A model generated the notes under the pieces. It was given only the letters and a program-made list of their open reading frames with translations, made no database searches and was not told the origin of the DNA. The translations under genes and the position numbers were made by a program. Shown here one piece after another: positions 6,383 to 47,403 of a stretch of 64,000 bases of DNA. The first letter of the stretch is position 1; every line of letters starts with the position of its first letter. The DNA is from a phage. The stretch is taken from NCBI GenBank assembly GCA_026066175.1, contig GCA_026066175.1_4721.1; one strand, given 5' to 3'.

Positions 6383-6961
6383 TTAATGAGGAATGAGAGA
6401 ACTTAATTCGCTTTCTTCGATAACGAAGGTTTCGTTTTGGTTATCGAGATTCGTCAGCAAGACTTGTCCGACCGTAAAACAATCACCGCCTTTCTTCGGT
6501 ACCCAAACCGGTTCGTTGGTTACCGAATCAGGATACCATTTAAAGCGGTTGGTGTCCAGGAAGAACGCTGCTTTGTTTTCATTATCGGTAGAACGATAAC
6601 TGATCAATGCAGGCCACTCAATCCATGTCTTGGTGCACGGCACATGCAGGGGATACCACGCACGCCAATACTTACCAGGACGTTTTGGATCCTCCCAGTA
6701 TTCTGCCGTTAGCACGGCATCTTTATACTGTTTCTGCATCAGCATCTCAAGAACAGGTTCGTTGCCGAGCGGTAAACGCACCAATTCTCTTTCGACGTAC
6801 GCGGTATCGTCAAAAACGTCTCGATGTAAGTGGGTGGATACCCCAACAGGGGGTTTCGCGATCGTTGGTTTACGTTTCTGCTCTTTACGACGTGTATACA
6901 GAAACAATCCGATCGCTACTGCCACGAGTAAAACAAACAACACTACATTAATCCAATTCAT
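6383..6961 (-). CDS. Membrane-anchored hypothetical protein
   Basis: N-terminal hydrophobic helix VVLFVLLVAVAIGLFLY followed by basic RRKEQKRK; strong intrinsic terminator immediately downstream. Confidence 0.5.
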   Translation of the reverse strand: MNWINVVLFVLLVAVAIGLFLYTRRKEQKRKPTIAKPPVGVSTHLHRDVFDDTAYVERELVRLPLGNEPVLEMLMQKQYKDAVLTAEYWEDPKRPGKYWRAWYPLHVPCTKTWIEWPALISYRSTDNENKAAFFLDTNRFKWYPDSVTNEPVWVPKKGGDCFTVGQVLLTNLDNQNETFVIEESELSSLIPH

Positions 6962-7653
6962 TCGTCAACGTCTCCTTCTGCAAACAGGGTCAATTTGATT
7001 TCTGGATCATAGAACATGGTGATCACACCATCTTGTTCTGCTGAACGCTGCGCTGTCCATATTAACTGTTCATCCCGAATATCAAATTTATACCGTTCGT
7101 CGGTAACCACCGCTTCTGCATCGACGTAATGATAAATGGCACCTTCAGGATTCTCAATCCAGCCACGTACCATCAAACGGTCTTTCTGCTTACGTGTGAA
7201 GAATCGATACGGATCTTCACATGTTTGCCAAACATCACCGCTTTCGCTTACCAGTTCGTCATACACCTTCGAAAGCTCGTCAGGCACTGGAATCAGAATG
7301 TTATCCTGATAACTTGACCAGAAGCGACGTACGTCTTGTAATAGATCATCGCCCTGAAGTTCGATGGTTTCAGTATCATTGCCCTTTACAATTTCAATGC
7401 GGTCATGATAAACCCGAACCCAACCGTCATGCCAGTTATTACCATCAATCCGAAAAAGCAACGTATGAAAAACAACAACGTCGATATCGTCGAATGAGTC
7501 AAGTAACGCTTTAGCTGCTAACAACGGCGAATAATTCTTCGATTGCGTTGCTTTATGGATCTCTTCTTTGATGTACAGCTTTCCATGGATTGGGTGTTCT
7601 ATAACAAAACCACAGGAAAGCATGATGCTTCCTTGATAACGTGCTTCTTGCAT
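6958..7653 (-). CDS. Hypothetical protein
   Basis: 231-aa ORF in the minus-strand gene array; stop overlaps the start of the next gene. Confidence 0.45.
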   Translation of the reverse strand: MQEARYQGSIMLSCGFVIEHPIHGKLYIKEEIHKATQSKNYSPLLAAKALLDSFDDIDVVVFHTLLFRIDGNNWHDGWVRVYHDRIEIVKGNDTETIELQGDDLLQDVRRFWSSYQDNILIPVPDELSKVYDELVSESGDVWQTCEDPYRFFTRKQKDRLMVRGWIENPEGAIYHYVDAEAVVTDERYKFDIRDEQLIWTAQRSAEQDGVITMFYDPEIKLTLFAEGDVDE

Positions 7654-7738: not shown

Positions 7739-8269
7739 TTAATTTTGGCCTATCACCTTTTCTACCGCTTCAAGAATAGCGTCGTTTAGTCGTTGCCCAC
7801 GTTCCTCCATTGTTCCACCATCGCGATGTTTGTAGTTAACCGAGCAGATATCCCAAGCCCAGTAAGGCATCTCCGATGACTTGTCATCTCTGGTAGGATC
7901 GTTCAATCTGCTAGCACTAATCTGCCAGATGAAATCGGCGGGTTGTTGCCGTAAGCATTCACCTATAGCGTCTATATAAGACAACCCTTCGGTCGTCATA
8001 GCGACGATGACGTGCGGGTGTTTATTAACAACCTTCGTGATTGGTTTCCCATTAACAACCACTATACGGGTTACGTTATCGTGCCCTTCGCACGACCACA
8101 TCGGTGCGATACCAGGCGCATCCAATAATGCCTGACAGGCGGGTAAAATACGCGGTTCGACTACACCTGCTTCGATAGCAGCCCGTGCGCGCTCTTTAAA
8201 ACGCATCAGTTGTTCTTCAGTGATAACAAAAGAAAACATGGTTACTCCTTTCTGGTTCTTCCCCTCCAC
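7739..8269 (-). CDS. Hypothetical protein
   Basis: 176-aa ORF; no motif recognised. Confidence 0.45.
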   Translation of the reverse strand: MEGKNQKGVTMFSFVITEEQLMRFKERARAAIEAGVVEPRILPACQALLDAPGIAPMWSCEGHDNVTRIVVVNGKPITKVVNKHPHVIVAMTTEGLSYIDAIGECLRQQPADFIWQISASRLNDPTRDDKSSEMPYWAWDICSVNYKHRDGGTMEERGQRLNDAILEAVEKVIGQN

Positions 8270-8311
8270 AGCCTCAGGAAGAGAAGAACCATTTGTTACG
8301 TTGACGGATGA

Positions 8312-8569
8312 TCAAAATCCACTGATTGGATTGTTCAACGCTTTATCGCGGATTTTAATTGCCGCCAACATCGCTTTCTGATACGAATCGTAGGTATCGA
8401 CAGAAACCGTTAAATCGACCAATTTCTCTAACACAGATTCAGTCGCTTTTACGCGAACGCGAAACTTGGTAATGACATTATCTTTGTTACGGTAAACTGT
8501 GATGTGATGCAACGGCTGAACTTTAGTTTTATTAGTTTTAACGGATTTAGTTACTTTGATCGTTTTCAT
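8312..8569 (-). CDS. Hypothetical small protein
   Basis: Start moved to MKTIKVTK (AGGAAACCGCC upstream); the longer ORF-track start would translate through the terminator hairpin at 8624-8641. Confidence 0.4.
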   Translation of the reverse strand: MKTIKVTKSVKTNKTKVQPLHHITVYRNKDNVITKFRVRVKATESVLEKLVDLTVSVDTYDSYQKAMLAAIKIRDKALNNPISGF

Positions 8570-8623
8570 GGCGGTTTCCTTTTTAACTAGGATGATTGCA
8601 TATACAGGGTTTAACGGCATAAA

Positions 8624-8641
8624 CCCTCCCCGGAGGGAGGG
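8624..8641 (-). terminator. GC-rich stem-loop with TTTATGCC tail
   Basis: CCCTCCC / GGGAGGG stem; minus-strand tail TTTATGCCG. Confidence 0.5.
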
Positions 8642-8658
8642 CATACGAACAGTTCGAT

Positions 8659-9153
8659 TTACGTATGTCGGCGTTTGCCAAAGAAAATGTGATTATCTAC
8701 CACGGTGATGTTGGTAGCATGCTTTTTGAAATGTTTGGGGCGAAGGTGTTTCGCGTTGAAGAATACGGCTCCTTTAGTTGGATCAGCTTTTCGATAGGCG
8801 GGCATATCGTTACGTAAGACAGCAACTTTACGCGCGATTGCTCTTGCACGGTCGAAAGCGACTTTATCGGTAATGACGATCCTTTTACGTTTTGTCCAGG
8901 GGAATTGACCTCTTTGCAGAACCACATCTCTGACGTTCGTAGGGAATCGGGAATCCATCGAACGGTTATGTATTAAAAACGCCACGGAGTATTGTCCTTT
9001 CAACGATTCGCCTCTGGCCTCCATATACACGGCACAGGCGACGATCTCTTTCCGACAATCTATTCTAGGCCCTGCGTTCACCGATGCTTGACTGAACGGT
9101 GTGATAAGTAACATAACAAGCCCTAAAACCAACGTGTGTAAAATACCTTGCAT
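8659..9153 (-). CDS. Secreted cell-wall hydrolase, SleB / Hydrolase_2-like
   Basis: Signal-peptide-like N-terminus MQGILHTLVLGLVMLLITPFSQASV; motifs YMEARGES, HNR..RFPT, RGQFPW match the SleB-type hydrolase pattern; GAGGT upstream of the internal Met. Confidence 0.55.
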   Translation of the reverse strand: MQGILHTLVLGLVMLLITPFSQASVNAGPRIDCRKEIVACAVYMEARGESLKGQYSVAFLIHNRSMDSRFPTNVRDVVLQRGQFPWTKRKRIVITDKVAFDRARAIARKVAVLRNDMPAYRKADPTKGAVFFNAKHLRPKHFKKHATNITVVDNHIFFGKRRHT

Positions 9154-9398
9154 CTTAATAACCTCACGATAAGGTGCTGTCCACTGGCGTTTTCTTGTTG
9201 TCAACGCGTGCTGTTAATCAGCGGGCAGCAGGTTAGCGTCAGATGTTTGCCCGACATCCACGACAGAAATAAACGGTACTGAAAATACGGTCTCCTCTGG
9301 TTTGGCAATAAACATAACGTTGGATAACAGAACCCATTTCCCGCATCCAACGCGGTAAAGGTGTACATCGTTTGAATTCATATAGTTTCTCAAAGATG

Positions 9399-9701
9399 TT
9401 AACCTCTACCGTCGAGCCACAGGTTATATTTCTCACGGGTAGTCGGATCACGATAGATACGACGATACCTTAATTCCGGTAATAACCCGGTTCGTACCAA
9501 CTCATCCGTTATCTTCCGACGTCGTTCTACGCCATCATGAATACGACGTAACTCACGGAAGTTAAGCGGTGTTTGTTTCATCAGAATTCCCATTACAACC
9601 GGGCGATGATCGATTTCGTACAGTGACAATACTCCACGTATTTCGTCTAACACGCGTTCTCGATCGATCAATATACGGTCGTGGTATTTTAACTGTTCCA
9701 T
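9399..9701 (-). CDS. Hypothetical protein
   Basis: ORF in array; start tentatively placed at MEQLKYHD. Confidence 0.3.
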   Translation of the reverse strand: MEQLKYHDRILIDRERVLDEIRGVLSLYEIDHRPVVMGILMKQTPLNFRELRRIHDGVERRRKITDELVRTGLLPELRYRRIYRDPTTREKYNLWLDGRG

Positions 9702-10066
9702 AACGACCACTCTTGTTCTACACGTCGACATACCGGTAATAAACACCACCAACATAAGGCGCTAAACGATAACAGCGCGAGAATAGCTGTGATTCCATTC
9801 AGGTGTCCGCTGATTTGCCATGAAGTAAACATGAATAGAACATAACCTAAACCATACCCGATGAACCGTTTGATGTTATATACCGATTGTACACAGATGT
9901 ACAGCAACGGGATTTGCCCAACAATAGAAATAACGGATCGTACCACAAAGTTAATACGCGCTGACGTATCAATGAAATCCATTGTAACCGCATTAATACC
10001 AATCAACGTAAGTGTGATACCGAGAAAGATTTTTATATACGTGCTGAATTTAGTTGCTTTTTGCAT
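9689..10066 (-). CDS. Multi-pass membrane protein
   Basis: Several hydrophobic segments (IFLGITLTLIGINAV, ILALLSFSALCWWCLL). Confidence 0.4.
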   Translation of the reverse strand: MQKATKFSTYIKIFLGITLTLIGINAVTMDFIDTSARINFVVRSVISIVGQIPLLYICVQSVYNIKRFIGYGLGYVLFMFTSWQISGHLNGITAILALLSFSALCWWCLLPVCRRVEQEWSLWNS

Positions 10067-10277
10067 TGTGCTTATTCCTACCTACATTCCTCAACAATGT
10101 AACGATAACGAATACCGCTATCATCAAGAAGATGAACCATAACCCAACGTTGATTCGGGCTGCAGGTTCATCGACGAGAAAGAACATCCATCCGCAGAAC
10201 CCGATGACAATCCATACCAACACCATCCCGGTTAATCCACGTAACAGCAGATGTCCCATAATCCCTCCTGATTTCAT
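10050..10277 (-). CDS. Small membrane protein (holin-like by size and topology only)
   Basis: 75 aa with two hydrophobic stretches (VLVWIVIGFCGWMFFLV, LWFIFLMIAVFVIVTLL) and a basic C-terminus. Confidence 0.4.
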   Translation of the reverse strand: MKSGGIMGHLLLRGLTGMVLVWIVIGFCGWMFFLVDEPAARINVGLWFIFLMIAVFVIVTLLRNVGRNKHNAKSN

Positions 10278-10444
10278 TTATCCTGATACAACGATAACTC
10301 CAGTCGTAGAAATACCGCTAACGCAATAGACAGTAACGCTACGCGTACCCACATCCCACCTTGAACGCTGTTATACAGCATAAAGACCAGAGCGATGCCG
10401 CCCATATGCAGGCGGCACTTATCGAAAAGTGTTGGTTTATACAT
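10274..10444 (-). CDS. Small membrane protein (ORF absent from the supplied track)
   Basis: Hand translation: MYKPTLFDKCRLHMGGIALVFMLYNSVQGGMWVRVALLSIALAVFLRLELSLYQDK; stop overlaps the start of 10050-10277 (ATGA). Confidence 0.3.
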   Translation of the reverse strand: MYKPTLFDKCRLHMGGIALVFMLYNSVQGGMWVRVALLSIALAVFLRLELSLYQDK

Positions 10445-10664
10445 AGGAAATTAATCGTCGTGTGATTTTTACTTTACCTTTACCTGGGCCTTTCTTGCGA
10501 CGATTCAACAGACGGATGCGGTATCCGGTTACGGTATCCCCATCGTAATCAGCGCGTAACGATAACGAGAGAGCACGATGTTCCCGATCAACGCCCGGGT
10601 TGTTATAGAAACGATTGAAACTTAAAAGATGATTACTTGGAATCATTGTGTTATCCTTACTCAA
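10437..10664 (-). CDS. Small basic protein with KKGPGKGK motif
   Basis: C-terminus RLLNRRKKGPGKGKVKI resembles three small ORFs at 30600-31193. Confidence 0.35.
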   Translation of the reverse strand: MSKDNTMIPSNHLLSFNRFYNNPGVDREHRALSLSLRADYDGDTVTGYRIRLLNRRKKGPGKGKVKITRRLISYV

Positions 10665-11024
10665 TTATCGGCCCAGGTCGAGGTATTCAGCACCAACCAC
10701 GGTATTAGTGGTAGGATCAACCAATACGCGAACACGCGCGTAAGTACGATACCCTGGATTGAACACTTCGAAATCCGCAACACGCAGTTTCACTTTAGGG
10801 TCGGTTGGACTTTTCACACCTGGCAGTTCTTTCGGTTCACCGAAGTCTACGCCCATTTCTTCAAGGTCATTTGACGTAAACTCATTCATGGCCATATAGA
10901 CACGTGAGGCTGTATTGAATACATCACGGCTGTAGAGGAAATCGGTTTGGTTAGCATGTACAGAACCAATAAAACCACCGAACAGAATAGCAACAGCAAC
11001 AAACAGTTTTGTTAACGTTTTCAT
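10665..11024 (-). CDS. Secreted hypothetical protein
   Basis: Signal-peptide-like N-terminus MKTLTKLFVAVAILFGGFIGSVHA. Confidence 0.5.
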   Translation of the reverse strand: MKTLTKLFVAVAILFGGFIGSVHANQTDFLYSRDVFNTASRVYMAMNEFTSNDLEEMGVDFGEPKELPGVKSPTDPKVKLRVADFEVFNPGYRTYARVRVLVDPTTNTVVGAEYLDLGR

Positions 11025-11062
11025 GAGCGTTTCCTTAATAACTTAAATAGAACAATATCGTA

Positions 11063-11485
11063 TTAACGTACAGCTGCTACACCGCGTGAGCATGCCTGGA
11101 TACCATCGGTGTTCACGATGATGGTTTCGTTAAACGCGCGAATACGTGCACGACGGGCTTCTTTAAGGCTGGCGATAGCGCTAGCAACTTCGTTAACGTT
11201 AGCGAGACTTACGACCGGAATCAGACGAGCGTCAGGGCTGCAGATGTTCAAGCCTTGATAAATACGTCCGTTAATTCCTAAGGTATCAGACATCGGATAA
11301 TGCGCGCGGCATTGATTTTGGCCCATCACCACAAATGAACGATCGGAGAGACCAATTTGGTAACGACCGTCTTCACTGTAGGTGTAGCAATTGTGTCCAC
11401 GAAGCATCCAGTTTGCTTGTGCTTGAACGCTTACGAAAGCCAGAGATGCAACGATAGCCAGTACGATGTTTTTGATCAGTTTCAT
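11063..11485 (-). CDS. Secreted hypothetical protein
   Basis: Signal-peptide-like N-terminus MKLIKNIVLAIVASLAFVSVQA; AAGGAA upstream of the start. Confidence 0.5.
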   Translation of the reverse strand: MKLIKNIVLAIVASLAFVSVQAQANWMLRGHNCYTYSEDGRYQIGLSDRSFVVMGQNQCRAHYPMSDTLGINGRIYQGLNICSPDARLIPVVSLANVNEVASAIASLKEARRARIRAFNETIIVNTDGIQACSRGVAAVR

Positions 11486-11569
11486 GATAAGATTCCTTAT
11501 TAAAGATTAAAATGAATATTGAGAAATAAGAGATTGATAAGGCCCTCATCACGAGGGCCTCCGTAACCA

Positions 11570-11878
11570 TTAATTTGCCGAGAAGAAATGCATTATAGCA
11601 TCTACCGGCTGCGGGTTGCTTTCAAATTTGTCGTTAGTAAACACGACGCGCTGTCGTAGGACGTGTGCGGCTATGATATCGCTTTTATCTCCGGCAAGCG
11701 AAACGAAACTCATCGTCCCAGCAGGGATCGCGATTTCGAACGTTGATGTACGACCTTTAGCTTTCTTGATGCTCTGTAAGGTGCTGTTGAGCGTTTCCGT
11801 TTTCTGACCGATCAGAAGACCGGTAACAAAACGATTTTCGATTTTACCAGCAACGTTCATCTTGAATGAAGTTGACAT
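11570..11878 (-). CDS. Hypothetical protein
   Basis: 102-aa ORF followed by the stem-loop at 11541-11559. Confidence 0.45.
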   Translation of the reverse strand: MSTSFKMNVAGKIENRFVTGLLIGQKTETLNSTLQSIKKAKGRTSTFEIAIPAGTMSFVSLAGDKSDIIAAHVLRQRVVFTNDKFESNPQPVDAIMHFFSAN

Positions 11879-11928
11879 AATTACATCCTCTTAATACGGA
11901 TTGATTTTAGATTGATAACAACATAACA

Positions 11929-11947
11929 GCCCTCCGAAGTGGAGGGC
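11929..11947 (-). terminator. Stem-loop terminator
   Basis: GCCCTCC GAAGT GGAGGGC with a U-rich minus-strand tail. Confidence 0.45.
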
Positions 11948-11955
11948 CTGGTTAA

Positions 11956-12267
11956 TTACTTGTAGAAATGACGTAAAACCGTTGCGATAGGGAACAACCC
12001 TGTAACGGTGTTATCACCCGCGAACATCATGTTCGAACCGTTAACCGTGATGAAACGGATATCGGTTGCTGAACCATCGATGGCGACAAATCGCATCGAG
12101 TTAGGTGGAAGATCTTCAACAACATCCTCCAGGTATTCACGGTTTTCAAACGCTTCTTTAACACGACGCATGAAACGAATCAAGGTTCCTTCAGCATCAG
12201 CTTCCAAATGGCCTAAGGTTTCACGATTGTTACGAATAGCGAATACAGTCATCTTAAACATATTCAT
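11956..12267 (-). CDS. Hypothetical protein
   Basis: 103-aa ORF; preceded by promoter-like motif copy 1 and AAGAGGA. Confidence 0.5.
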   Translation of the reverse strand: MNMFKMTVFAIRNNRETLGHLEADAEGTLIRFMRRVKEAFENREYLEDVVEDLPPNSMRFVAIDGSATDIRFITVNGSNMMFAGDNTVTGLFPIATVLRHFYK

Positions 12268-17229: not shown

Positions 17230-17735
17230 GCTAAGTTTTCCTCGTTTTCTAAGAGTCGATTACGATGACGTTTATACATTTGATGTAACGCTGTGATCTG
17301 ATAAAATTTCTTATAGCGTCTTTCAATCCGCTTCTGCACCTCTTTCCATGGGAGTTTATCGTATTGACGATAACGATGGATTTCATTTAACATGCGGAGT
17401 CGATCAGGGTCTGTGTTCTGTATCGTCCTGAGTTTGATACGCTGGTAACCGCGTTGTAACCCCGATTCAGAATACGTCACACCGAATTCATCTTGAATTA
17501 AGGTGATGATCTCCCGCCAACGTCGTTTCTCACCGTCGCGCAAATGCACGACCCGCGATAAAATATCGTTACGATTACGATGACTCAGCTTGATATTAAG
17601 CATTGAAGCGATCGCGCTTATCCCTCTCTGACTCCGTCCTAACGCTTCACCGATCTCCTTTGATGTCATGACGCCAGCGTTTCGGCGTATGAATGCGATT
17701 TCGGTTGTTGTATATTCACGGTTACCCACGATCAT
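17226..17735 (-). CDS. HTH/Myb-like DNA-binding protein, paralog 1 of 6
   Basis: YTTTEIAFIRRNAGVMTSKEIGEALGRSQRGI plus C-terminal W..I..I..EFG..Y shared with the five neighbours. Confidence 0.5.
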   Translation of the reverse strand: MIVGNREYTTTEIAFIRRNAGVMTSKEIGEALGRSQRGISAIASMLNIKLSHRNRNDILSRVVHLRDGEKRRWREIITLIQDEFGVTYSESGLQRGYQRIKLRTIQNTDPDRLRMLNEIHRYRQYDKLPWKEVQKRIERRYKKFYQITALHQMYKRHRNRLLENEENLA

Positions 17736-18190
17736 ATCACCTGATAATAATGAAGACGTTGACGTAACGTAATCGGTTTATATTGCTTTCCAAATTCCTT
17801 GTTAATAATAGAAACCGTTTCCTTCCACGTGGGTCCTTGTTCACGTAGTGTTTTCGCCCGCGTTAGCAGCCGCGTGCGTTCTGTGGTGTCATAGCGACGC
17901 AGTCCTAAACGTCTTGCTGTTGCCGCTACGCTGTCACGCGAACGGTTGAGTTGTAGAGCGATCTCTTTAAACGACAACGTTCTTATGTTTTCACTGATAA
18001 AAGCGATCTCATCTTTGGTGTACGGTTTGTTCGTACGAACGGAGGGGAATAACGCAAGTTTATTCTTTATAGCGCTTCTTGAACGATTTAGCTGTTTAGC
18101 GATTATCGCGGTTGATGGACGTGGTATCTGTTCAGCAAGACGCTCCAGGCGCTCAAACTCTTCTTTCGTCCAACGGCGCTTCTGTCCCAT
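17732..18190 (-). CDS. HTH/Myb-like DNA-binding protein, paralog 2 of 6
   Basis: WTKEEFERL...IAKQLNRSRSAI; YTKDEIAFI...KEIALQLNRSRDSV; WKETVSIINKEFGKQY. Confidence 0.5.
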   Translation of the reverse strand: MGQKRRWTKEEFERLERLAEQIPRPSTAIIAKQLNRSRSAIKNKLALFPSVRTNKPYTKDEIAFISENIRTLSFKEIALQLNRSRDSVAATARRLGLRRYDTTERTRLLTRAKTLREQGPTWKETVSIINKEFGKQYKPITLRQRLHYYQVI

Positions 18191-18662
18191 TGGCTACACT
18201 CTCCTTCTTCTTGTTAAGAAACCATCGTTGATAAACAGCATGCTTACTGTAATGTGTACCGAACACCGTGTTCACATGGTCCGCGATCACGCTCCAACGA
18301 TAGCCCTGACGGTGTTGTTCGTCAATGTAGTCCAACAATGTCTGACGGAACGTCTCTGATGTTCGATAGATTTTATTCCGCATAGCAAACAATCGAACGG
18401 TGTCGTACGGTCGATTAAGATCAATAGCGATTTCCTTTAACGTTTTGTGTTTGACGTTATCCCTTAAGTAGTTCAGCTCTCGAGTTGTAAACGGTATGCG
18501 TGTTTGTCGTCGCTGTAACGTCAATCGTCGGATACGGCTTTCGACACTATAGCGAGAGCGTTTTAAACGTTCCGCAATCTCTCTTATTGGCGTTGTGGTT
18601 TCTGTATACAGAAAAACTAACAACGTTATTTCATCGGGTTTCCAGGGCCTAATTTCCTTCAT
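18153..18662 (-). CDS. HTH/Myb-like DNA-binding protein, paralog 3 of 6
   Basis: WKPDEITLL...EIAERLKRSRYSV; FTTRELNYL...KEIAIDLNRPYDTV; WSVIADHVNTVFGTHY. Confidence 0.5.
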   Translation of the reverse strand: MKEIRPWKPDEITLLVFLYTETTTPIREIAERLKRSRYSVESRIRRLTLQRRQTRIPFTTRELNYLRDNVKHKTLKEIAIDLNRPYDTVRLFAMRNKIYRTSETFRQTLLDYIDEQHRQGYRWSVIADHVNTVFGTHYSKHAVYQRWFLNKKKESVANGTEAPLDERRV

Positions 18663-19107
18663 TGATTACTTCCCCTTCTTCCTTATTTCTCTTCTCGTGA
18701 TACCACCAACGCTGACGAACCGCTTGTTCACTCCAATCAGAGTTGAAATGTTCGTTCGCTGTGTTGGTAATTTGGTGCCAACTGTCGCCTTCTTTTAACC
18801 TTTTGTTCACAAAAGCTAAGAATGCATGCGTGTATTCTCCACAAGAGCGTCGTATGCCATGTCGGTACGCAATAGCTCTTAAACTGTTTGGATCGCGACC
18901 TAAATCTCTCGCAATCGCTTTATACGTTTTTCGAGCAATGTTTGCTCTGATATACGCTATTTCATGTGATTTGAAATATTGATACGCGCGCCGTCTTGGA
19001 ACACCCAGTCGATGTAGTCGTGCTTGAACGGCCCCGTACGTCGTCTCCATGATTTCCGCGATTTCATGAATCTTTAATCGCGGTTGCCGAAAATACAGTT
19101 TCAACAA
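18649..19107 (-). CDS. HTH/Myb-like DNA-binding protein, paralog 4 of 6
   Basis: IHEIAEIMETTYGAV; FKSHEIAYIRANIARKTYKAIARDLGRDPNSL; WHQITNTANEHF. Confidence 0.45.
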   Translation of the reverse strand: MLKLYFRQPRLKIHEIAEIMETTYGAVQARLHRLGVPRRRAYQYFKSHEIAYIRANIARKTYKAIARDLGRDPNSLRAIAYRHGIRRSCGEYTHAFLAFVNKRLKEGDSWHQITNTANEHFNSDWSEQAVRQRWWYHEKRNKEEGEVINEGN

Positions 19108-20107: not shown

Positions 20108-23230
<3,123 letters not shown>

Positions 23231-23889: not shown

Positions 23890-24154
23890 TTACACCAGAC
23901 GGCACAACCACACCGGTACGAATCACTGCCGCGATTTCCTGCATCGCTTTGCCTTTCAACGCAAAGGTTTCGTATACAACAGCACGTCGGGTTGTTAGGC
24001 CCACAAACTTACAGACGACCATGTTGTCTTCTGAAAGATACGCGGTTTCCAACTCACCGTGCAGCAGTTCTTTTTCTCGAGTATCAATGCCGATTAAGGC
24101 AATTTGATAGGCAGATAGTTTCCAATAACGCATATTCATCCTACTTGTAAACAA
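23840..24154 (-). CDS. Hypothetical protein
   Basis: 104-aa ORF. Confidence 0.3.
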   Translation of the reverse strand: MFTSRMNMRYWKLSAYQIALIGIDTREKELLHGELETAYLSEDNMVVCKFVGLTTRRAVVYETFALKGKAMQEIAAVIRTGVVVPSGVSDDLDEVLHGTRKTAC

Positions 24155-24966
24155 TCAAATATTCCGAAACCGAGTTCCTCGTTTCTACTTTAGCCGAGAT
24201 CATTCTCCTTACCGTAATCGGATGAAATTCTGATGCGGTACTATAGATTTCTTCAACCAATGGGCACGTACTATTACTGATTACGGTAGGGATACCCGAC
24301 TTACGAAGTTTGTCGGCCGTTTCTGCAAGGTATCGGTGGTCATCCAACGTGAATCCTTCCTTGGTATAACCTGTAAAAGAGGCTGTGGTCGAAATAGGGA
24401 TATACGGCGGGTCGCAATATACGACATCGCCCGATCTCACGTTTTCGAGGTGTCGTCTAAACCCACCACTTACAATTTCCACCCCCCCCCCCCTCGACGG
24501 TGGTACGAAGATGGTTAGCAGCCGTCCGTAATTCGTATTTCGGACAATAGATCGTCTTGTATCGTCCGTGCGCAACGTTAAATAATCCGTTTTGGTTATA
24601 GCGACACAAACCATTGAATCCGTAACGGTTCAGGTATATGAAACACACCGCACGTTCCCAAGGATCGTTGCTTTGATTAAAACGATCGCGTACCTCGTAA
24701 TAACGTTTAACGTCTTCCGGTGAAATTTGGAATAAACGTTCAACATCCTCAATGAATTGTTTCGGACATGTCACCAACGCTCTCCAAACATTAAGGATAT
24801 CCTCGTTAGCATCCCCAATGGAATAACTAGGATATTTCAGTGAAAGCGTCACCGCGCCAGAGCCGACGAACGGTTCAACCAAGCGTTTTCCATCCGGCAA
24901 CACATTCCTAATTTCAGGGATAAGTTTGGTTTTGTTACCCAACCATTTAAGAAACGTTTTATTCAT
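24141..24966 (-). pseudogene. dam: Dam-family N6-adenine DNA methyltransferase, split by a frameshift in a 12-nt homopolymer
   Basis: N-terminal ORF (24457-24966) has FLKWLGNK...LVEPFVGSGAV; C-terminal ORF (24141-24614) has VVYCDPPY; the two frames meet in the run of 12 C on the plus strand (12 G in coding sense) at 24482-24493; one fewer G gives ...RTTVEGGGVEIVSGGF... in frame. Confidence 0.75.
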
Positions 24967-25387
24967 CGAGAGACCCCTGCGACCCGATGAACTCGATGCT
25001 TATTTCCGTTCGAATCGGGTTGATAAGAATTTCACGTACACGCTCCAACCATTCGGGATTATCCGTCAGAACAACATCGGCGTATTTCAACGGTGTATGT
25101 TCGAACGTATCGGTTGTGCTTACCATCAATACACCGTTAAGTTCTACGTACAGCGGTATACGTCCACGAATACGTTGCCATGTGTCATGGGTCAGATCTT
25201 CGCATTCAAGCGCAATCGCGATGATGGGGCTGATGTTAAGTGGGAAGCTAGGATGCAACGTGCGGCGAAATGTCACCCAGTTCTCAACATGAGAAACCGC
25301 AAGTTCTATCGAACAACATTTTGGTGGTATCTGAATATGAATTTGTTGGACAAGTTTATTGGGGTTTTGTACAGACTTATCGGCCAT
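24959..25387 (-). CDS. Hypothetical protein
   Basis: 142-aa ORF. Confidence 0.45.
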   Translation of the reverse strand: MADKSVQNPNKLVQQIHIQIPPKCCSIELAVSHVENWVTFRRTLHPSFPLNISPIIAIALECEDLTHDTWQRIRGRIPLYVELNGVLMVSTTDTFEHTPLKYADVVLTDNPEWLERVREILINPIRTEISIEFIGSQGSLDE

Positions 25388-32768: not shown

Positions 32769-32828
32769 CTCACGATAAAGTAAATAGGATTTGTCGAGAC
32801 GCCCTATTCTTTTATCGTTGGTTTTCCA

Positions 32829-33692
32829 TTAGTAATAATATCTGATACGTTCGGGTTTTGCTAAAACACTCTGTTCGAATGGCCTTACATGTACGCAAAC
32901 ATCGACAGAATAATAGATACTACCATCGCCACACCATCGCATTACCACACATCCCTTTCTTGTACGAATATGGTAAAACGTCCACTGTGTTTGCCAGTTA
33001 TCGTCTGTGGATTCTTCCGTTCTTTCTTCCGCATCAAGAATCTTTTCACCGACAATATCGCTTAAATCACCATCGATATCGCTGAGATATACCGTCTCGC
33101 AACACTCACGGCTGTGGTACATTTCTACCACGTTATCGTCTTCGCGATGAAAAAGGATAGCTTTACAGTATTCCAGCTGTTCCTCGGTTATTTCTGACGC
33201 GTTAAGTAATTCGTCGTTATCAGTCACCATCCAGATATTTTTGATTACATGCCCGTCGAGCTCCTCCATTGTAAATACCTCGATATTCGGACGAACGGGT
33301 TCAGGTTGAACAATCGGAATACGAACACAACCAATTAAGGCCATCCGTCCTTTCTTTGGTCTAACCGCAAGGTAAGGTGATTTTCTTGGGTGGTTATGCA
33401 GACGTATTTCTAATTCGTCGAATTTAATCCCGTATATACCTAAGAAACGATCGAACAACCGATGAAACTCATCTGTTGCTTCTTCCAACGTTATGGCGTC
33501 TACCGTGAGTTTATGTCCCCTGAACACTCTGGTTAAATCGATAACGTCCAGTGTCTTGAAATATATTTCCGTAAGGGGATGATTTGTATTTTCCAGGTAC
33601 GTAATGGTTCTTTGAACCCAGATTTTAGGCGCAGCGCCTTTAAAACGTTTCAGGTATTTAAAGCGATAACGGGTATGATCTGATGTTATCAT
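32829..33692 (-). CDS. Hypothetical protein
   Basis: Start moved to MITSDHTRY (GAGAGGAGG upstream); the longer ORF would read through the terminator hairpin. Confidence 0.45.
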   Translation of the reverse strand: MITSDHTRYRFKYLKRFKGAAPKIWVQRTITYLENTNHPLTEIYFKTLDVIDLTRVFRGHKLTVDAITLEEATDEFHRLFDRFLGIYGIKFDELEIRLHNHPRKSPYLAVRPKKGRMALIGCVRIPIVQPEPVRPNIEVFTMEELDGHVIKNIWMVTDNDELLNASEITEEQLEYCKAILFHREDDNVVEMYHSRECCETVYLSDIDGDLSDIVGEKILDAEERTEESTDDNWQTQWTFYHIRTRKGCVVMRWCGDGSIYYSVDVCVHVRPFEQSVLAKPERIRYYY

Positions 33693-33766
33693 TTTAGCCT
33701 CCTCTCTTAGCTTCAGAGAATTCTCAAAATCCGTTAGTTTTGATAGACCGAGTAAGACGGCATAAA

Positions 33767-35780: not shown

Positions 35781-37094
35781 TCACTTAGACACCGCCATGC
35801 TTCGCGCTAACGCAACGTCGTACGCATCCATGATTGCGTCGCCGATAGCAGTATGACGAATCAACGGAATACCTACGTCTGGATACTCTTTGGTACCCAT
35901 GATCGATACCGGTTTGTCCTGATAGGCTGCGATCATCGAACGAATGTCCTGAACCTGGTTGTATCGGCAGATGGGTTTAAAGCCTGCTTTACGGAACCAA
36001 TACTCTAATTGAGGCCAATCGGTTTCACCGCGGGCAAGATAATAGAAGGTATCTTTACCGTAGTATTCTGTCATTTTGTCACGAATATTGTTAACGAACG
36101 CATTGACTTCAGCAATGGCTTCTTTATAGCCCATTACCTTACCATGCTGGAAACAATAATCACGTGCTTCTTTCGGTGCTTTGGTTTGCCACCACTCTAC
36201 CGTTGATTCGCTGATACGACCACCGTCAGCGATTTGACCGTGCACGTCAGGGAAGACATCAATACGCGGACCGTTAACGATGGATTCTGGATTAGCCAGA
36301 TCGAAGAACACGATACCGATTTCTAACAACACCCCGTTCTTTTCCAGACTAAGGTTCTCAACATCCAAACAGAATGCAGGCTTCTCTACCGCTAATGGCT
36401 CGAATGAATGGTTGCTGGTATCCGACTCAGCTTCGAGTTCGGTGGCGTCCAGATCGGTATCCGCAGGTTTCAGTTCTAATACAGCATTATCAAGCCCGGT
36501 TAACGAAAAATAGTCTTCGAAGAAATCGGGTACCGTCATGCCATGCAAATCGATACCACAATCTTCCATCCATTGTTTAAACTGGCACTCATCGACATCG
36601 ATCGCTAAACGGCATGGTCCGTAACGATTATCCAATGACGCATCAATCCAGAAGAAAGTGCGTATAAGTAAGTAAGGATTATGCTCCGCGATGATTTCTT
36701 GGCTAGCGTGAGCATCATACACCATTACCTGTATTATTTCCTTACGTGTGTTATACGGATCAACCATCAATCGCCGCACGACTTCTCCCAGGTATTCCAG
36801 CGCACGTGTGTACACGGTAGATCCAACTTGTCCGTACGCGCTTATACCCGTCAATAGTTCCTTATAAGACGCGTCTGAAAGCGAAGACGATAGCACACGC
36901 GCCAGCTCGGCATTGTATATACTGCATGATTTCTTCGGGGCGATAGCATCATGTAACGCTTTAATAAACGCTGGTCCATCAATATCAAACAACCATCCTT
37001 GGCGTCGGTGGGCGGTATATCGTAATAACGCACCGATAGCTGCCTGGGGTGGTGTATATTCTTTTTCGTTAATTTCAAACAGTAGTTCGCTCAT
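35781..37094 (-). CDS. Two-domain protein with C-terminal DnaQ-like 3'-5' exonuclease (DEDDh)
   Basis: Exo I FCLDVENLS (D.E), Exo III RHTAIGDAIMDAYD (H...D); ~200-aa N-terminal domain of unknown function. Confidence 0.55.
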   Translation of the reverse strand: MSELLFEINEKEYTPPQAAIGALLRYTAHRRQGWLFDIDGPAFIKALHDAIAPKKSCSIYNAELARVLSSSLSDASYKELLTGISAYGQVGSTVYTRALEYLGEVVRRLMVDPYNTRKEIIQVMVYDAHASQEIIAEHNPYLLIRTFFWIDASLDNRYGPCRLAIDVDECQFKQWMEDCGIDLHGMTVPDFFEDYFSLTGLDNAVLELKPADTDLDATELEAESDTSNHSFEPLAVEKPAFCLDVENLSLEKNGVLLEIGIVFFDLANPESIVNGPRIDVFPDVHGQIADGGRISESTVEWWQTKAPKEARDYCFQHGKVMGYKEAIAEVNAFVNNIRDKMTEYYGKDTFYYLARGETDWPQLEYWFRKAGFKPICRYNQVQDIRSMIAAYQDKPVSIMGTKEYPDVGIPLIRHTAIGDAIMDAYDVALARSMAVSK

Positions 37095-37110
37095 TTTAAC
37101 ACCTTTTTTG

Positions 37111-45948: not shown

Positions 45949-47403
45949 ATGAAAATCAAACAAAGCTGGAAAGACGAATTACTTGCATTAGTTAACAGCA
46001 AAAACAGTTTACAACTGACATTAGACGACGTAAAGTTTGAATTAACCGAACCGGTAAGCGAAGTGCCCGGAACGGTCGTTGTTACAATCAAACCGAACGA
46101 TAATAGTCGCTACTTTAACGAGCAGTCTCTGACCTACGTCCGTCGAGACATTGCTAAAAACTTCACCGGGATTCCGTTACGGGTTATCGTTAAGCAAGAT
46201 ACCGCTGTAAGGGATATCATCAATACGATTGCTGAACGTTACGGATTGGTATTTGACACAACCGTCGACTTCCTCGAATCAGAGCTGAATAAACAAATTA
46301 CTTTCGCAGACACCGGTATTAAAGACGTTACTGTTCCGGTTGCAAACACGTCTTATGTTTGGGCTGGTAATCTTCAGTTCAATATTGCGAACGATACGTT
46401 AAGCTTGATTACTATCATCAAGAAAACCAATCTTACGAATCTGGTTTATCTGGATGGTGTTGAAGCTGACACATCGGGGTCGTTACTGTTAGCCACCACA
46501 GCACTTGTTAACGATAGCGTAAATAAGCCGATGGTTGAAAACGAAGATATCGTCGATGAATTCTACAACGTTCTTAATGCTCTAGCCAAATATGGTGACA
46601 TAACTGGCGATGAATTAAATGCCGCCTTACATGCGTACGATGAAGCAGAAAACAGGAATAAAACCACGGTAATAACTCTTGGTGATATCCAGTGTGTTGC
46701 AACAGAAAAAGACGATTGGGAAATTGGACGTTTACGCGGTCAGATGGTTCTCGCGCTCAAATCCGACAAACAACCTGAGCGCGAGAACACGTTAAGGTTG
46801 TTTACGAATGGCGGTGACGTCTCACTAACGTTAAACACAATGAAAGATATCAGTATCGATTGGGGTGATGGGAATAAAGTAACGTTGGATGCTGAAGAAA
46901 GATACGCGCACCACACATACGCCGACAATAACCAGTACCAAATCGAAATTGTGTCTCGTACGGACCCAGATGTGCTGCGACCAAATTATATTTCTGGGAG
47001 TGAGATAACCGAAGTAATTCACTGGGCTACTACTTCAACAATAGCTCTGAATTTTGTTGGATGCGATAATTTAGCGACTGTTCCAGATGAGATCCCAACT
47101 TCGTGGACAACGTTGGACAGCATGTTTGAAAGTTGTACGAATTTGAATGATCCGTCTATCTCTAACTGGAATACAAGTAACATCACATCAATGAATGGTA
47201 TGTTCGGCGGATGCACTAAATTTAACCAACCTTTAGCTGCCTGGGATGTCAGCTCAGTAACTGACATTGGTGGTATGTTTGTCGGATGTGACAGTTTTAA
47301 CCAAGATTTAAGTGGGTGGCGATTACCGTCAGGAGTAAACCACACCAATTACGATGATGGTGCTTTCTCGTGGCAGACGGAACATAAACCGACATTCCAG
47401 TAA
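45949..47403 (+). CDS. Fibre / receptor-binding-like protein with C-terminal DUF285-type repeats (paralog of 32-1786)
   Basis: N-terminal ~150 aa aligns closely with 32-1786; C-terminal ITSMNGMFGGCTKFNQPLAAWDVSSVTDIGGMFVGCDSFNQDLSGW repeats. Confidence 0.6.
   Translation: MKIKQSWKDELLALVNSKNSLQLTLDDVKFELTEPVSEVPGTVVVTIKPNDNSRYFNEQSLTYVRRDIAKNFTGIPLRVIVKQDTAVRDIINTIAERYGLVFDTTVDFLESELNKQITFADTGIKDVTVPVANTSYVWAGNLQFNIANDTLSLITIIKKTNLTNLVYLDGVEADTSGSLLLATTALVNDSVNKPMVENEDIVDEFYNVLNALAKYGDITGDELNAALHAYDEAENRNKTTVITLGDIQCVATEKDDWEIGRLRGQMVLALKSDKQPERENTLRLFTNGGDVSLTLNTMKDISIDWGDGNKVTLDAEERYAHHTYADNNQYQIEIVSRTDPDVLRPNYISGSEITEVIHWATTSTIALNFVGCDNLATVPDEIPTSWTTLDSMFESCTNLNDPSISNWNTSNITSMNGMFGGCTKFNQPLAAWDVSSVTDIGGMFVGCDSFNQDLSGWRLPSGVNHTNYDDGAFSWQTEHKPTFQ

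Follow-up and report, generated by a model that had tools for sequence, protein, structure and literature searches.

Does an exported murein hydrolase that is encoded together with small membrane proteins form part of the lysis system of a nucleus-forming jumbo phage? The question arises from a stretch of 64,000 nucleotides (nt) of phage DNA (contig GCA_026066175.1_4721.1 of GenBank assembly GCA_026066175.1; the whole stretch is called the window below), in which a SleB-like hydrolase gene is accompanied on the same strand by a group of short open reading frames (ORFs). An earlier sequence-only reading, made without database searches, had proposed a holin/antiholin plus endolysin arrangement for this locus, with a virion-associated enzyme as the alternative. 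We found that the hydrolase gene closes an operon which is the best, though unproven, candidate for part of the phage's lysis system, and that an exceptionally conserved leader stands before it.

Megablast of positions 8000-12000 returned Escherichia phage vB_EcoM_Goslar (81% identity) as its sole match, and in blastn the whole window was collinear with Goslar from about 103.5 to 162.5 kb at 77-88% nt identity. By this collinearity the window comes from a new member of the Goslar-like chimalliviruses, which are nucleus-forming jumbo phages. The alignment was interrupted at about 17718-19030, 24137-24992, 32828-33709, 36392-37106 and 46500-47157, where nt similarity was not detectable and where genes have presumably been replaced or inserted. 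Additional Goslar-like contigs were drawn from IMG/VR, Logan assemblies and metagenomes (labelled L001, L003, L014, L016-L018, L023, L033 etc.); the proteins of L023 were 98-100% identical to those of the window. Relatives of the small operon proteins were searched for in 50,697 phage records (tblastn), in 5.8e9 proteins, and in Pfam, PHROGs and NCBIfam. What these data show is the gene content, the selection acting on the genes, the identity of domains, the character of the signal peptide, the limits of the operon and the conservation of the leader.

A SleB-like hydrolase with a predicted Sec signal

The hydrolase gene (8659-9153, minus strand) encodes 164 amino acids (aa) and is the ortholog of Goslar gp098 (YP_009820783), with which it shares 88% aa identity, its neighbours and its leader. 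It matched Pfam Hydrolase_2 (PF07486) over profile positions 1-100 of 100 (E=5e-17, 62.8 bits, cut-off 27) and also matched PHROG 'endolysin' families. The motifs on which the SleB-like assignment had originally been based (EARGE, NRSMDSRFP and GQFPW) were all found. With the NCBIfam SleB equivalog model it scored 46.7 bits, far under the cut-off of 236.5, so the protein is a member of the family and not a SleB equivalog. In alignment with the SleB catalytic-domain structures 4F55 and 4FET, its YMEARGE falls on YGESRGE; the motif was invariant in all Goslar-like copies, and the Glu in Y-x-E-x-R-G-E is what we take, following the SleB literature, to be the catalytic residue. A lytic-transglycosylase-type activity would be expected from the family. 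The gene is among the most constrained of the region, with a ratio of non-synonymous to synonymous substitution rates (dN/dS) of 0.10 against Goslar.

The start of the gene had been placed at TTG 9204. ATG 9153 is likelier, because it stands behind a GAGG Shine-Dalgarno sequence and because the upstream extension holds no start codon in Goslar. From this ATG the protein opens with a predicted Sec-type signal, MQGILHTLVLGLVMLLITPFSQA/SV (a slash marks the predicted cleavage site), which bears out the signal-peptide-like N-terminus described in the sequence-only reading. The hydrophobic region of the signal, ILHTLVLGLVMLLITPF, comprises 17 residues with a Kyte-Doolittle hydropathy (KD19) of 1.95, and is followed by Pro at -5 and then by S-Q-A/S, with small residues at -3 and -1. 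Signal and cleavage motif were invariant in 10 of 10 Goslar-like sequences, and together they look like a cleavable Sec signal peptide. Identity as an endolysin of the signal-anchor-release (SAR) type was considered and rejected because merely 3 of the 17 core residues are Gly, Ala, Ser or Thr, the segment is strongly hydrophobic and a cleavage-type motif lies behind it. Two conserved Cys residues at the mature N-terminus would fit a periplasmic disulfide.

The closest homologs outside the Goslar-like phages, 37-44% identical and from other phages of Gram-negative hosts, were Salmonella phage Arash gp62c and proteins of Seunavirus KE23 and Sugarlandvirus DevonBitter. Like the window hydrolase, all three consist of a single Hydrolase_2 domain in 150-167 aa behind an N-terminal signal, and their signals are of textbook form (MK…VLA/S in Arash gp62c, …VLA/K in KE23 and …AQA/K in DevonBitter). 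Together they form a family of secreted phage SleB-like hydrolases, and the window hydrolase is a new member of this known and annotated kind of Hydrolase_2 enzyme; the Arash paper says nothing on gp62c. Unlike the window hydrolase, none of the three genes has a cluster of small membrane-protein genes alongside.

The hydrolase gene is the last of a terminator-bracketed operon

Eight same-strand genes, overlapping or closely spaced, occupy about 3 kb of the minus strand (11560-8621) between two terminator-like hairpins that were read from the sequence. The upstream hairpin (11540-11560, minus strand; AGGCCCTC-GTGAT-GAGGGCCT, 8 perfect pairs) separates the first operon gene from the preceding one, whose stop is at 11570, and was not listed by a consensus terminator scan because its T-run is interrupted. 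The downstream hairpin (8621-8641, minus strand; CCCTCCC-TCCG-GGGAGGG, then TTTAT) lies 18 nt past the hydrolase stop codon. In order of transcription the operon encodes a 140-aa secreted protein, a 119-aa secreted protein, the gp102 ortholog, a 56-aa protein (orf56), the orthologs of gp101, gp100 and gp099, and, behind the leader, the hydrolase. The leader excepted, all junctions are short overlaps or gaps of at most 40 nt.

The ORFs listed earlier were all present on the minus strand, and several details of the arrangement had to be changed. ATGA overlaps had been described among the membrane genes; one such overlap exists (10274-10277), but the remaining junctions overlap by 8 nt (10437-10444), 17 nt (10050-10066) and 13 nt (9689-9701). 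The membrane genes had also been placed directly upstream of the hydrolase, where in fact the 100-aa gp099 ortholog and a non-coding leader of about 270 nt intervene. The two further proteins said to follow the cluster do have signal-like starts, but both precede it in transcription and are the first genes of the unit.

Across 8312-11485 all nine ORFs gave dN/dS values of 0.09-0.38 against Goslar at dS of 0.5-1.9, and all nine are therefore real genes under purifying selection. Synteny of the operon was kept in all Goslar-like contigs (at least 12), with a mosaic middle. The products of the operon would all be envelope-bound or envelope-acting. A predicted exported hydrolase and small inner-membrane proteins are found within one terminator-bracketed unit, and nowhere else, in either the window or the Goslar genome, does a murein hydrolase adjoin small membrane proteins.

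K-mer enumeration of Goslar intergenic regions gave no promoter motif that could be placed in the operon, and a sigma-70 scan was uninformative; RNA-seq of Goslar has been published (10.1101/2023.09.20.558163). The enumeration also revealed a motif, CCCTTCCC-TTAC-GGGAAGGG, that recurs in about 20 Goslar intergenic regions. This motif, and related GC-rich hairpins such as the two of the operon, are apparently the ones that the phage routinely uses for termination or processing.

Small membrane proteins and a holin-like candidate

Three small membrane proteins had been recognised at 9689-10066, 10050-10277 and 10274-10444, and these show 3-4, 2 and 1-2 hydrophobic segments, respectively. The middle one, the gp101 ortholog, is under the strongest constraint in the operon (dN/dS 0.09). 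Its likelier start is ATG 10259 behind AGGAGG, which gives a 69-aa protein (10050-10259, minus strand) with two transmembrane domains (TMDs; Kyte-Doolittle peaks 2.37 and 2.93) and a basic C-terminal tail. The in-frame ATG 10277 has no ribosome-binding site; it adds the six residues MKSGGI and creates the ATGA overlap, and the resulting form with an N-terminal Lys (MKSGGIM…) is present in the window lineage and is not conserved across lineages. Orthologs of gp101 are 63-69 aa long, with two TMDs, a short acidic loop and a basic C-terminus, and among the 5.8e9 proteins its relatives were Goslar-like only. Class II size, a predicted two-TMD N-in/C-in topology and the basic C-terminus make this protein, by resemblance only, the best holin- or pinholin-like candidate of the operon. 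Homologs of gp101 were also found on contigs of about 240 kb deposited as Salmonella enterica assemblies (243,859 and 239,375 bp), which points to carriage of Goslar-like phages by Salmonella isolates, or to contamination of the isolates with them.

The start of orf56 (10274-10444, minus strand) overlaps the previous stop by the 8 nt given above, and its hydrophobic segments are short. The sequence-only reading had pointed to it as an unlisted ORF, and it proved to be conserved in all Goslar-like lineages, with 82% aa identity and a dN/dS of 0.18 against Goslar. It is absent from both the RefSeq and the GenBank annotation of Goslar (NC_048170 112140-112310; L001 7216-7386), and gene callers on Logan contigs do predict it.

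The third protein, the gp100 ortholog (125 aa, 9689-10066, minus strand; dN/dS 0.30), has 3-4 TMDs and varies between 46 and 99% aa identity among lineages. In L016-L018 an extra 118-aa multi-TMD gene stands beside it (reference coordinates of the region, L016 4635-5375). Alleles of gp099 and gp100 assort independently among lineages, and the gp099/gp100 region is, to judge from these alignments, a local recombination hot spot that adjoins the conserved leader.

An ultraconserved non-coding leader precedes the hydrolase

The leader (9154-9421, minus strand, about 270 nt) consists of a core (9218-9421), an apex (9194-9217) and a 3' arm with the Shine-Dalgarno sequence (9154-9193). From the gp099 stop almost to the hydrolase start the window differed from Goslar by a single mismatch, with the neighbouring genes 65-85% identical. 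An exact match of 159 nt to Goslar (9218-9376) was the longest in the 64 kb and surpassed any run in the genes for RNA polymerase and helicase; the leader is the most conserved DNA stretch of the window, and it is non-coding. Among nine lineages, mean pairwise identity was 0.985 for the core and 0.979 for the 3' arm, compared with 0.79 for the 24-nt apex, which occurs in two replaceable sequence variants, and 0.749 for the gp099 coding sequence (0.60 at third codon positions). Only 7 columns of a 192-nt core varied across the nine lineages, and each lineage differed from the window at no more than 2 of them. Third-position identity in the hydrolase gene was 0.92 over codons 1-23, 0.84 over codons 24-70 and 0.72 over codons 71-164, so the constraint at the nucleotide level reaches into the coding start.

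Known RNA classes did not account for this conservation. Rfam 15 gave no match at E<=1 over 8000-12000, a second Rfam search of 9100-9450 gave merely two chance miRNA matches (E 2.7-4.1), and ARAGORN found no tRNA or tmRNA in the leader. Paralogs were found in neither Goslar nor the window, and searches of 5,426 E. coli genomes and of the 50,697 phage records matched nothing apart from Goslar itself. An origin from the host and membership of a repeat family were both rejected on these grounds, since the leader is single-copy and absent from E. coli and from other phages. Pattern scans of viral and metagenome contigs recovered Goslar-like copies and chance 19-mers, and no diverged homologs.

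The sense strand folded far more stably than its shuffles, with z scores of -3.7 (core), -3.8 (full leader, window) and -5.6 (full leader, Goslar). A multi-helix junction and a long hairpin were predicted, and both apex variants keep this architecture. In the consensus fold the long hairpin pairs AUCU with AGGU of the Shine-Dalgarno sequence, and a small hairpin encloses the AUG. Extreme nucleotide-level constraint therefore falls on a non-coding, stably folding segment, which may tentatively be regarded as a candidate structured cis-regulatory RNA and translational gate for the hydrolase. Several results speak against such a gate. Compensatory changes were found in 0 of 102 predicted pairs, next to 5 one-sided compatible changes, and 3-4 substitutions disrupt hairpin 3. 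Opening of the start region costs 11.7 kcal/mol, which corresponds to the 81st percentile of window genes and is equalled by 11% of shuffled leaders, so that sequestration of the Shine-Dalgarno sequence was not significant when tested quantitatively.

The leader could instead be a DNA-level feature and not a functional RNA: a recombination linker that has been homogenised between Goslar-like phages in co-infection, a region that binds protein or acts as a promoter, or the gene of a small protein. The genes around it are strongly mosaic, with reshuffled gp099 and gp100 alleles, and L023, otherwise 99-100% identical to the window, has a different apex variant, which shows that recombination does happen at the leader; the lack of any helix backed by compensatory substitution and the broken hairpin 3 point the same way. 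Recombination alone, however, fails to explain why 98.5% identity is found solely here in nine lineages that carry private substitutions and two apex variants. Nor does a DNA-level role account for the folding of the sense strand beyond its shuffles into one architecture despite differing apices, or for conservation that runs across the Shine-Dalgarno sequence into the synonymous sites of the first 23 hydrolase codons. As for a small gene, gene callers predict a 55-aa ORF in the leader on public contigs, but this frame has 2 synonymous against 4 non-synonymous changes, its ATG lacks a Shine-Dalgarno sequence, and no frame shows a synonymous excess or any other coding signature; protein coding was rejected. 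Taken together, we regard a DNA-level explanation as possible, though less likely than not.

At the other extreme, the leader might represent a new class of cis-acting structured RNA that gates the translation, and perhaps the export or localisation, of the mRNA of a Sec-exported endolysin, with gp099 or the cationic gp102 as a possible trans-acting partner. In a nucleus-forming phage transcription and translation are physically apart, and mRNAs must first exit the phage nucleus. We consider this idea improbable as it stands.

Lysis module or accessory envelope module

Our preferred reading, to which we assign a probability of about 0.4, is that the operon is an envelope-directed module in which the hydrolase contributes Sec-dependent, holin-independent murein degradation to lysis and the gp101 ortholog is the best candidate for the membrane trigger. 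The hydrolase would reach the periplasm by Sec and not through a holin hole, and would there supply holin-independent murein degradation that aids lysis of the host late in infection. Such an exported enzyme is dangerous, and for that reason the ultraconserved structured leader before its start codon would keep its output low or delayed. The two-TMD gp101 ortholog, possibly with orf56, would be the most plausible membrane partner and act as a pinholin-like depolarising trigger, and a soluble GH108 enzyme encoded elsewhere may serve as the principal or a second endolysin. Export, timing, the role in lysis, holin-like function and regulation by the leader are inferred from the features described above.

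The proposed holin/antiholin plus endolysin arrangement survives in part: the hydrolase does share an operon with small membrane proteins, and the gp101 ortholog is holin-like. It does not extend to a match with a holin family or to spanins, and gp100 appears dispensable. As a canonical cassette the operon is incomplete, with no spanins and with a soluble GH108 endolysin-type enzyme elsewhere.

A number of observations count against a role in lysis. None of the membrane ORFs matched a holin, antiholin, releasin, spanin or other family in Pfam, PHROGs or NCBIfam, and none had relatives outside the Goslar-like phages in the 50,697 phage records or the 5.8e9 proteins. An all-frame lipobox scan of the window found no spanin or lipobox ORF (one antisense hit was spurious), and no operon protein matched the Mu-type releasin domain DUF2730 in Pfam. 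With phmmer, gp141, gp141.1, gp142, gp143 and gp144 of phiKZ had no match at E<=10 in stop-to-stop ORFs of Goslar and the window; the neighbours of the phiKZ cassette, gp139 and gp140, served as controls and matched at 1e-44 and 3e-15. The gp100 gene is missing from the L003/L033 lineage (reference coordinates of the region, L003 5214-5746), and gp100 seems to be an accessory, highly variable and dispensable gene. The n-region of the hydrolase signal contains neither Lys nor Arg, whereas the n-regions of Arash gp62c and the KE23 and DevonBitter homologs carry Lys. The operon is sited within a long block of small non-structural genes, whereas the lysis cassette of phiKZ sits among structural genes.

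A competitor is encoded outside the window. Goslar has three genes with murein-hydrolase domains in all, namely gp098, gp024 and gp204. The gp024 product (NC_048170 17700-18335) is a canonical soluble endolysin-type enzyme of GH108+PG_binding_3 architecture, classic for Gram-negative hosts, and its gene follows a terminator and stands alone in the structural region, without a membrane-protein gene beside it. In the published table of Goslar virions from LC-MS/MS (tandem mass spectrometry after liquid chromatography), gp024 reached about 76 copy-equivalents, whereas gp098, like all of gp097-gp102, is unlisted. The table holds about 100 phage proteins down to about 3 copies, and even cytoplasmic contaminants; because PhuZ, chimallin and ChmC are among them, detection mirrors abundance as much as packaging.

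A second murein hydrolase also coexists with the secreted homolog of KE23. In that phage the enzyme annotated as endolysin is a separate, soluble GH19+PG_binding_1 hydrolase, and the Rz-like spanins occupy three distant loci, 60 kb away, so a secreted SleB-like enzyme need not be the endolysin. PVP-SE1gp146, characterised from the same genus, is a soluble enzyme of this type.

These data give weight to the possibility of an accessory envelope module, in which case the real endolysin would be the soluble GH108 ortholog of gp024, with its holin elsewhere or still unrecognised. The hydrolase would then remodel or loosen murein, for example in an auxiliary capacity or to make room as the infected cell enlarges, and the ORFans would be envelope modifiers acting in superinfection exclusion or host takeover. 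Besides the abundance and architecture of gp024 and the pairing in KE23, the mosaic and fast-evolving gp099 and gp100, the latter lineage-dependent, follow a pattern commoner in conflict or accessory genes than in core lysis genes; the position among small non-structural genes, the absence of nearby spanins, and the detection by mass spectrometry of gp103 and gp104 but not of gp098 fit as well. On the other hand, no remodelling role has been demonstrated for phage Hydrolase_2 proteins in the literature searched, and the hydrolase and gp101 are among the region's most constrained genes (dN/dS 0.10 and 0.09). The gp024 gene has no adjacent membrane protein, its holin must be somewhere, and the operon holds the best candidates. 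The presence of gp024 in virion preparations equally fits a virion or entry role for gp024. We rate an accessory module as the main rival, only a little less probable than our preferred reading.

A lysis cassette at another site was not detected, given that Goslar and the window hold no homologs of phiKZ gp141-144 and that no membrane-protein cluster lies beside gp024. The suggestion that the hydrolase is a virion-associated enzyme for penetration of the cell wall at infection has some general appeal, since phage particles often carry murein hydrolases and the phiKZ endolysin gp144 is annotated beside structural genes. An invariant signal of predicted Sec type would, however, send the protein out of the cytoplasm, where virions assemble, and gp098 is missing from a virion table that reaches down to about 3 copies. 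The role of tail lysin is already taken by gp204 (NC_048170 215417-222175, outside the window), a 2252-aa tail protein with a COG3179 lysozyme-type domain and about 5 copies in the same table. We consider a virion enzyme very unlikely.

Comparison with known lysis systems

Among chimalliviruses, the lysis cassette of phiKZ, which was defined by experiment, comprises the spanins gp141/141.1, the class IIIb holin gp142, the cytoplasmic regulator gp143 and the soluble transglycosylase gp144 (Manohar et al. 2026, PMC12894885). The Goslar-type operon is likewise that of a chimallivirus, also has a small cytoplasmic protein between membrane protein and murein hydrolase, and shares with phiKZ a hydrolase from lytic-transglycosylase-type families. 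The phiKZ endolysin, however, is soluble and holin-dependent, with spanins present and the cassette among structural genes, whereas the window hydrolase is predicted to be Sec-exported; the operon differs from the phiKZ cassette in every component.

Export without a large-hole holin has precedents. Phage Mu lyses its host without a holin by means of an exported SAR endolysin and a releasin (PMC9239132). The window hydrolase resembles Mu and the SAR endolysin/pinholin systems (phage 21 S21/R21, P1 Lyz, phiKMV) in a predicted Sec export that is independent of a large-hole holin, and the small membrane protein of about 70 aa with two TMDs recalls a pinholin as a candidate trigger. SAR endolysins have a Gly/Ala-rich releasable anchor, whereas the window hydrolase has a strongly hydrophobic segment with a predicted A-x-A-type cleavage site, and compared with S21 and Mu the window lacks S21 homology, a DUF2730 releasin and spanins.

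Cleavable signals on endolysins also occur. Lys44 of Oenococcus phage fOg44 reportedly carries a cleavable Sec signal, is exported before lysis and is held inactive until the membrane is de-energised. The window hydrolase would resemble it in its predicted signal, but Lys44 differs in a Gram-positive host and an unrelated catalytic domain.

In the Goslar record gp098 is annotated 'endolysin / putative cell wall hydrolase SleB' by similarity only, and the signal peptide, the 56-aa membrane ORF, the operon and the leader are all unannotated. No paper on Goslar lysis was found in the literature searched.

Other products of the operon and neighbouring genes

The first operon gene (11063-11485, minus strand; dN/dS 0.12) encodes the 140-aa ortholog of Goslar gp104, with the signal …VSVQAQA/NW and 5 Cys in the mature part; its AlphaFold2 (AF2) model was too poor for use (predicted local distance difference test, pLDDT, 53). 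The second (10665-11024, minus strand; dN/dS 0.23) encodes the 119-aa ortholog of gp103, with the signal …GSVHA/NQ. In Goslar virion preparations gp104 and gp103 were detected by LC-MS/MS at about 39 and 29 copy-equivalents. From their predicted signals both would be periplasmic proteins. The third gene (10437-10646, minus strand; dN/dS 0.38), with its likely start at ATG 10646 behind AAGGA, encodes the soluble 69-aa gp102 ortholog. The conserved, strongly cationic C-terminus of this protein, RIRLLNRRKKGPGKGKVKITRRLISYV, could bind nucleic acid or act on membranes. The gp104, gp103 and gp102 orthologs matched no family in Pfam, PHROGs or NCBIfam.

The gp099 ortholog (9399-9701, minus strand) is predicted to be a basic, all-helical, non-membrane protein of the cytoplasm. 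Its AF2 model was all-helical with a pLDDT of 88.9 and had no structural neighbour in PDB. Two allelic types of gp099, about 58% identical, share the invariant C-terminus YRRIYR.P..R.KYNLWLDGRG.

Past the hydrolase terminator comes the 85-aa gp097 ortholog (8312-8569, minus strand), which has its own AAAGGA Shine-Dalgarno sequence and a basic, beta-rich N-terminal half; the allele in L014 is divergent (58% identity). The 192-aa gp094 ortholog (6383-6961, minus strand) lies 1.7 kb downstream of the hydrolase and shares an ATGA overlap with the gene before it, which encodes 231 aa (6958-7653, minus strand). It is a type II membrane protein with an N-terminal TMD and a periplasmic domain of about 165 aa, a topology like that of T4-type class III holins or i-spanins, and it had no family match and no embedded lipoprotein ORF. 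A further protein of about 95 aa (22874-23230, minus strand), adjoining the NAD-dependent DNA ligase gene (gp122 ortholog), is holin-like in its two TMDs and in the extremely charged tail at its C-terminus, and all hydrolase genes are far from it. Goslar has a single convincing lipoprotein, gp088 (NC_048170 97923-98426, just outside the window), which carries MKKLCAIILGMLMVLSLGG/C. In the published LC-MS/MS data gp088 amounted to about 740 copy-equivalents per virion, which is odd for a lipoprotein.

Implications for lysis by nucleus-forming phages

Besides that of phiKZ, we know of no lysis mechanism for nucleus-forming jumbo phages. It was not until 2026 that the phiKZ cassette was defined, and Goslar, the model phage on E. 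coli, has nothing that detectably corresponds to it. The operon described here, a possible module for lysis or for the envelope in Goslar-type chimalliviruses, is new to the literature searched, and it offers concrete lysis candidates in gp098, gp101 and orf56 for comparison with gp024. It also raises the idea of paired enzymes, one soluble and one Sec-exported, as an arrangement that may recur in unrelated large phages. The leader, a conserved element not described before, is the part likeliest to repay experiments. Being a non-coding element that is more conserved than RNA polymerase genes and stands before a potentially lethal exported enzyme, it provides an entry to post-transcriptional control in chimalliviruses. 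If the leader were indeed a new class of RNA, the lysis clock of a nucleus-forming phage would in part be an RNA element and not a holin.

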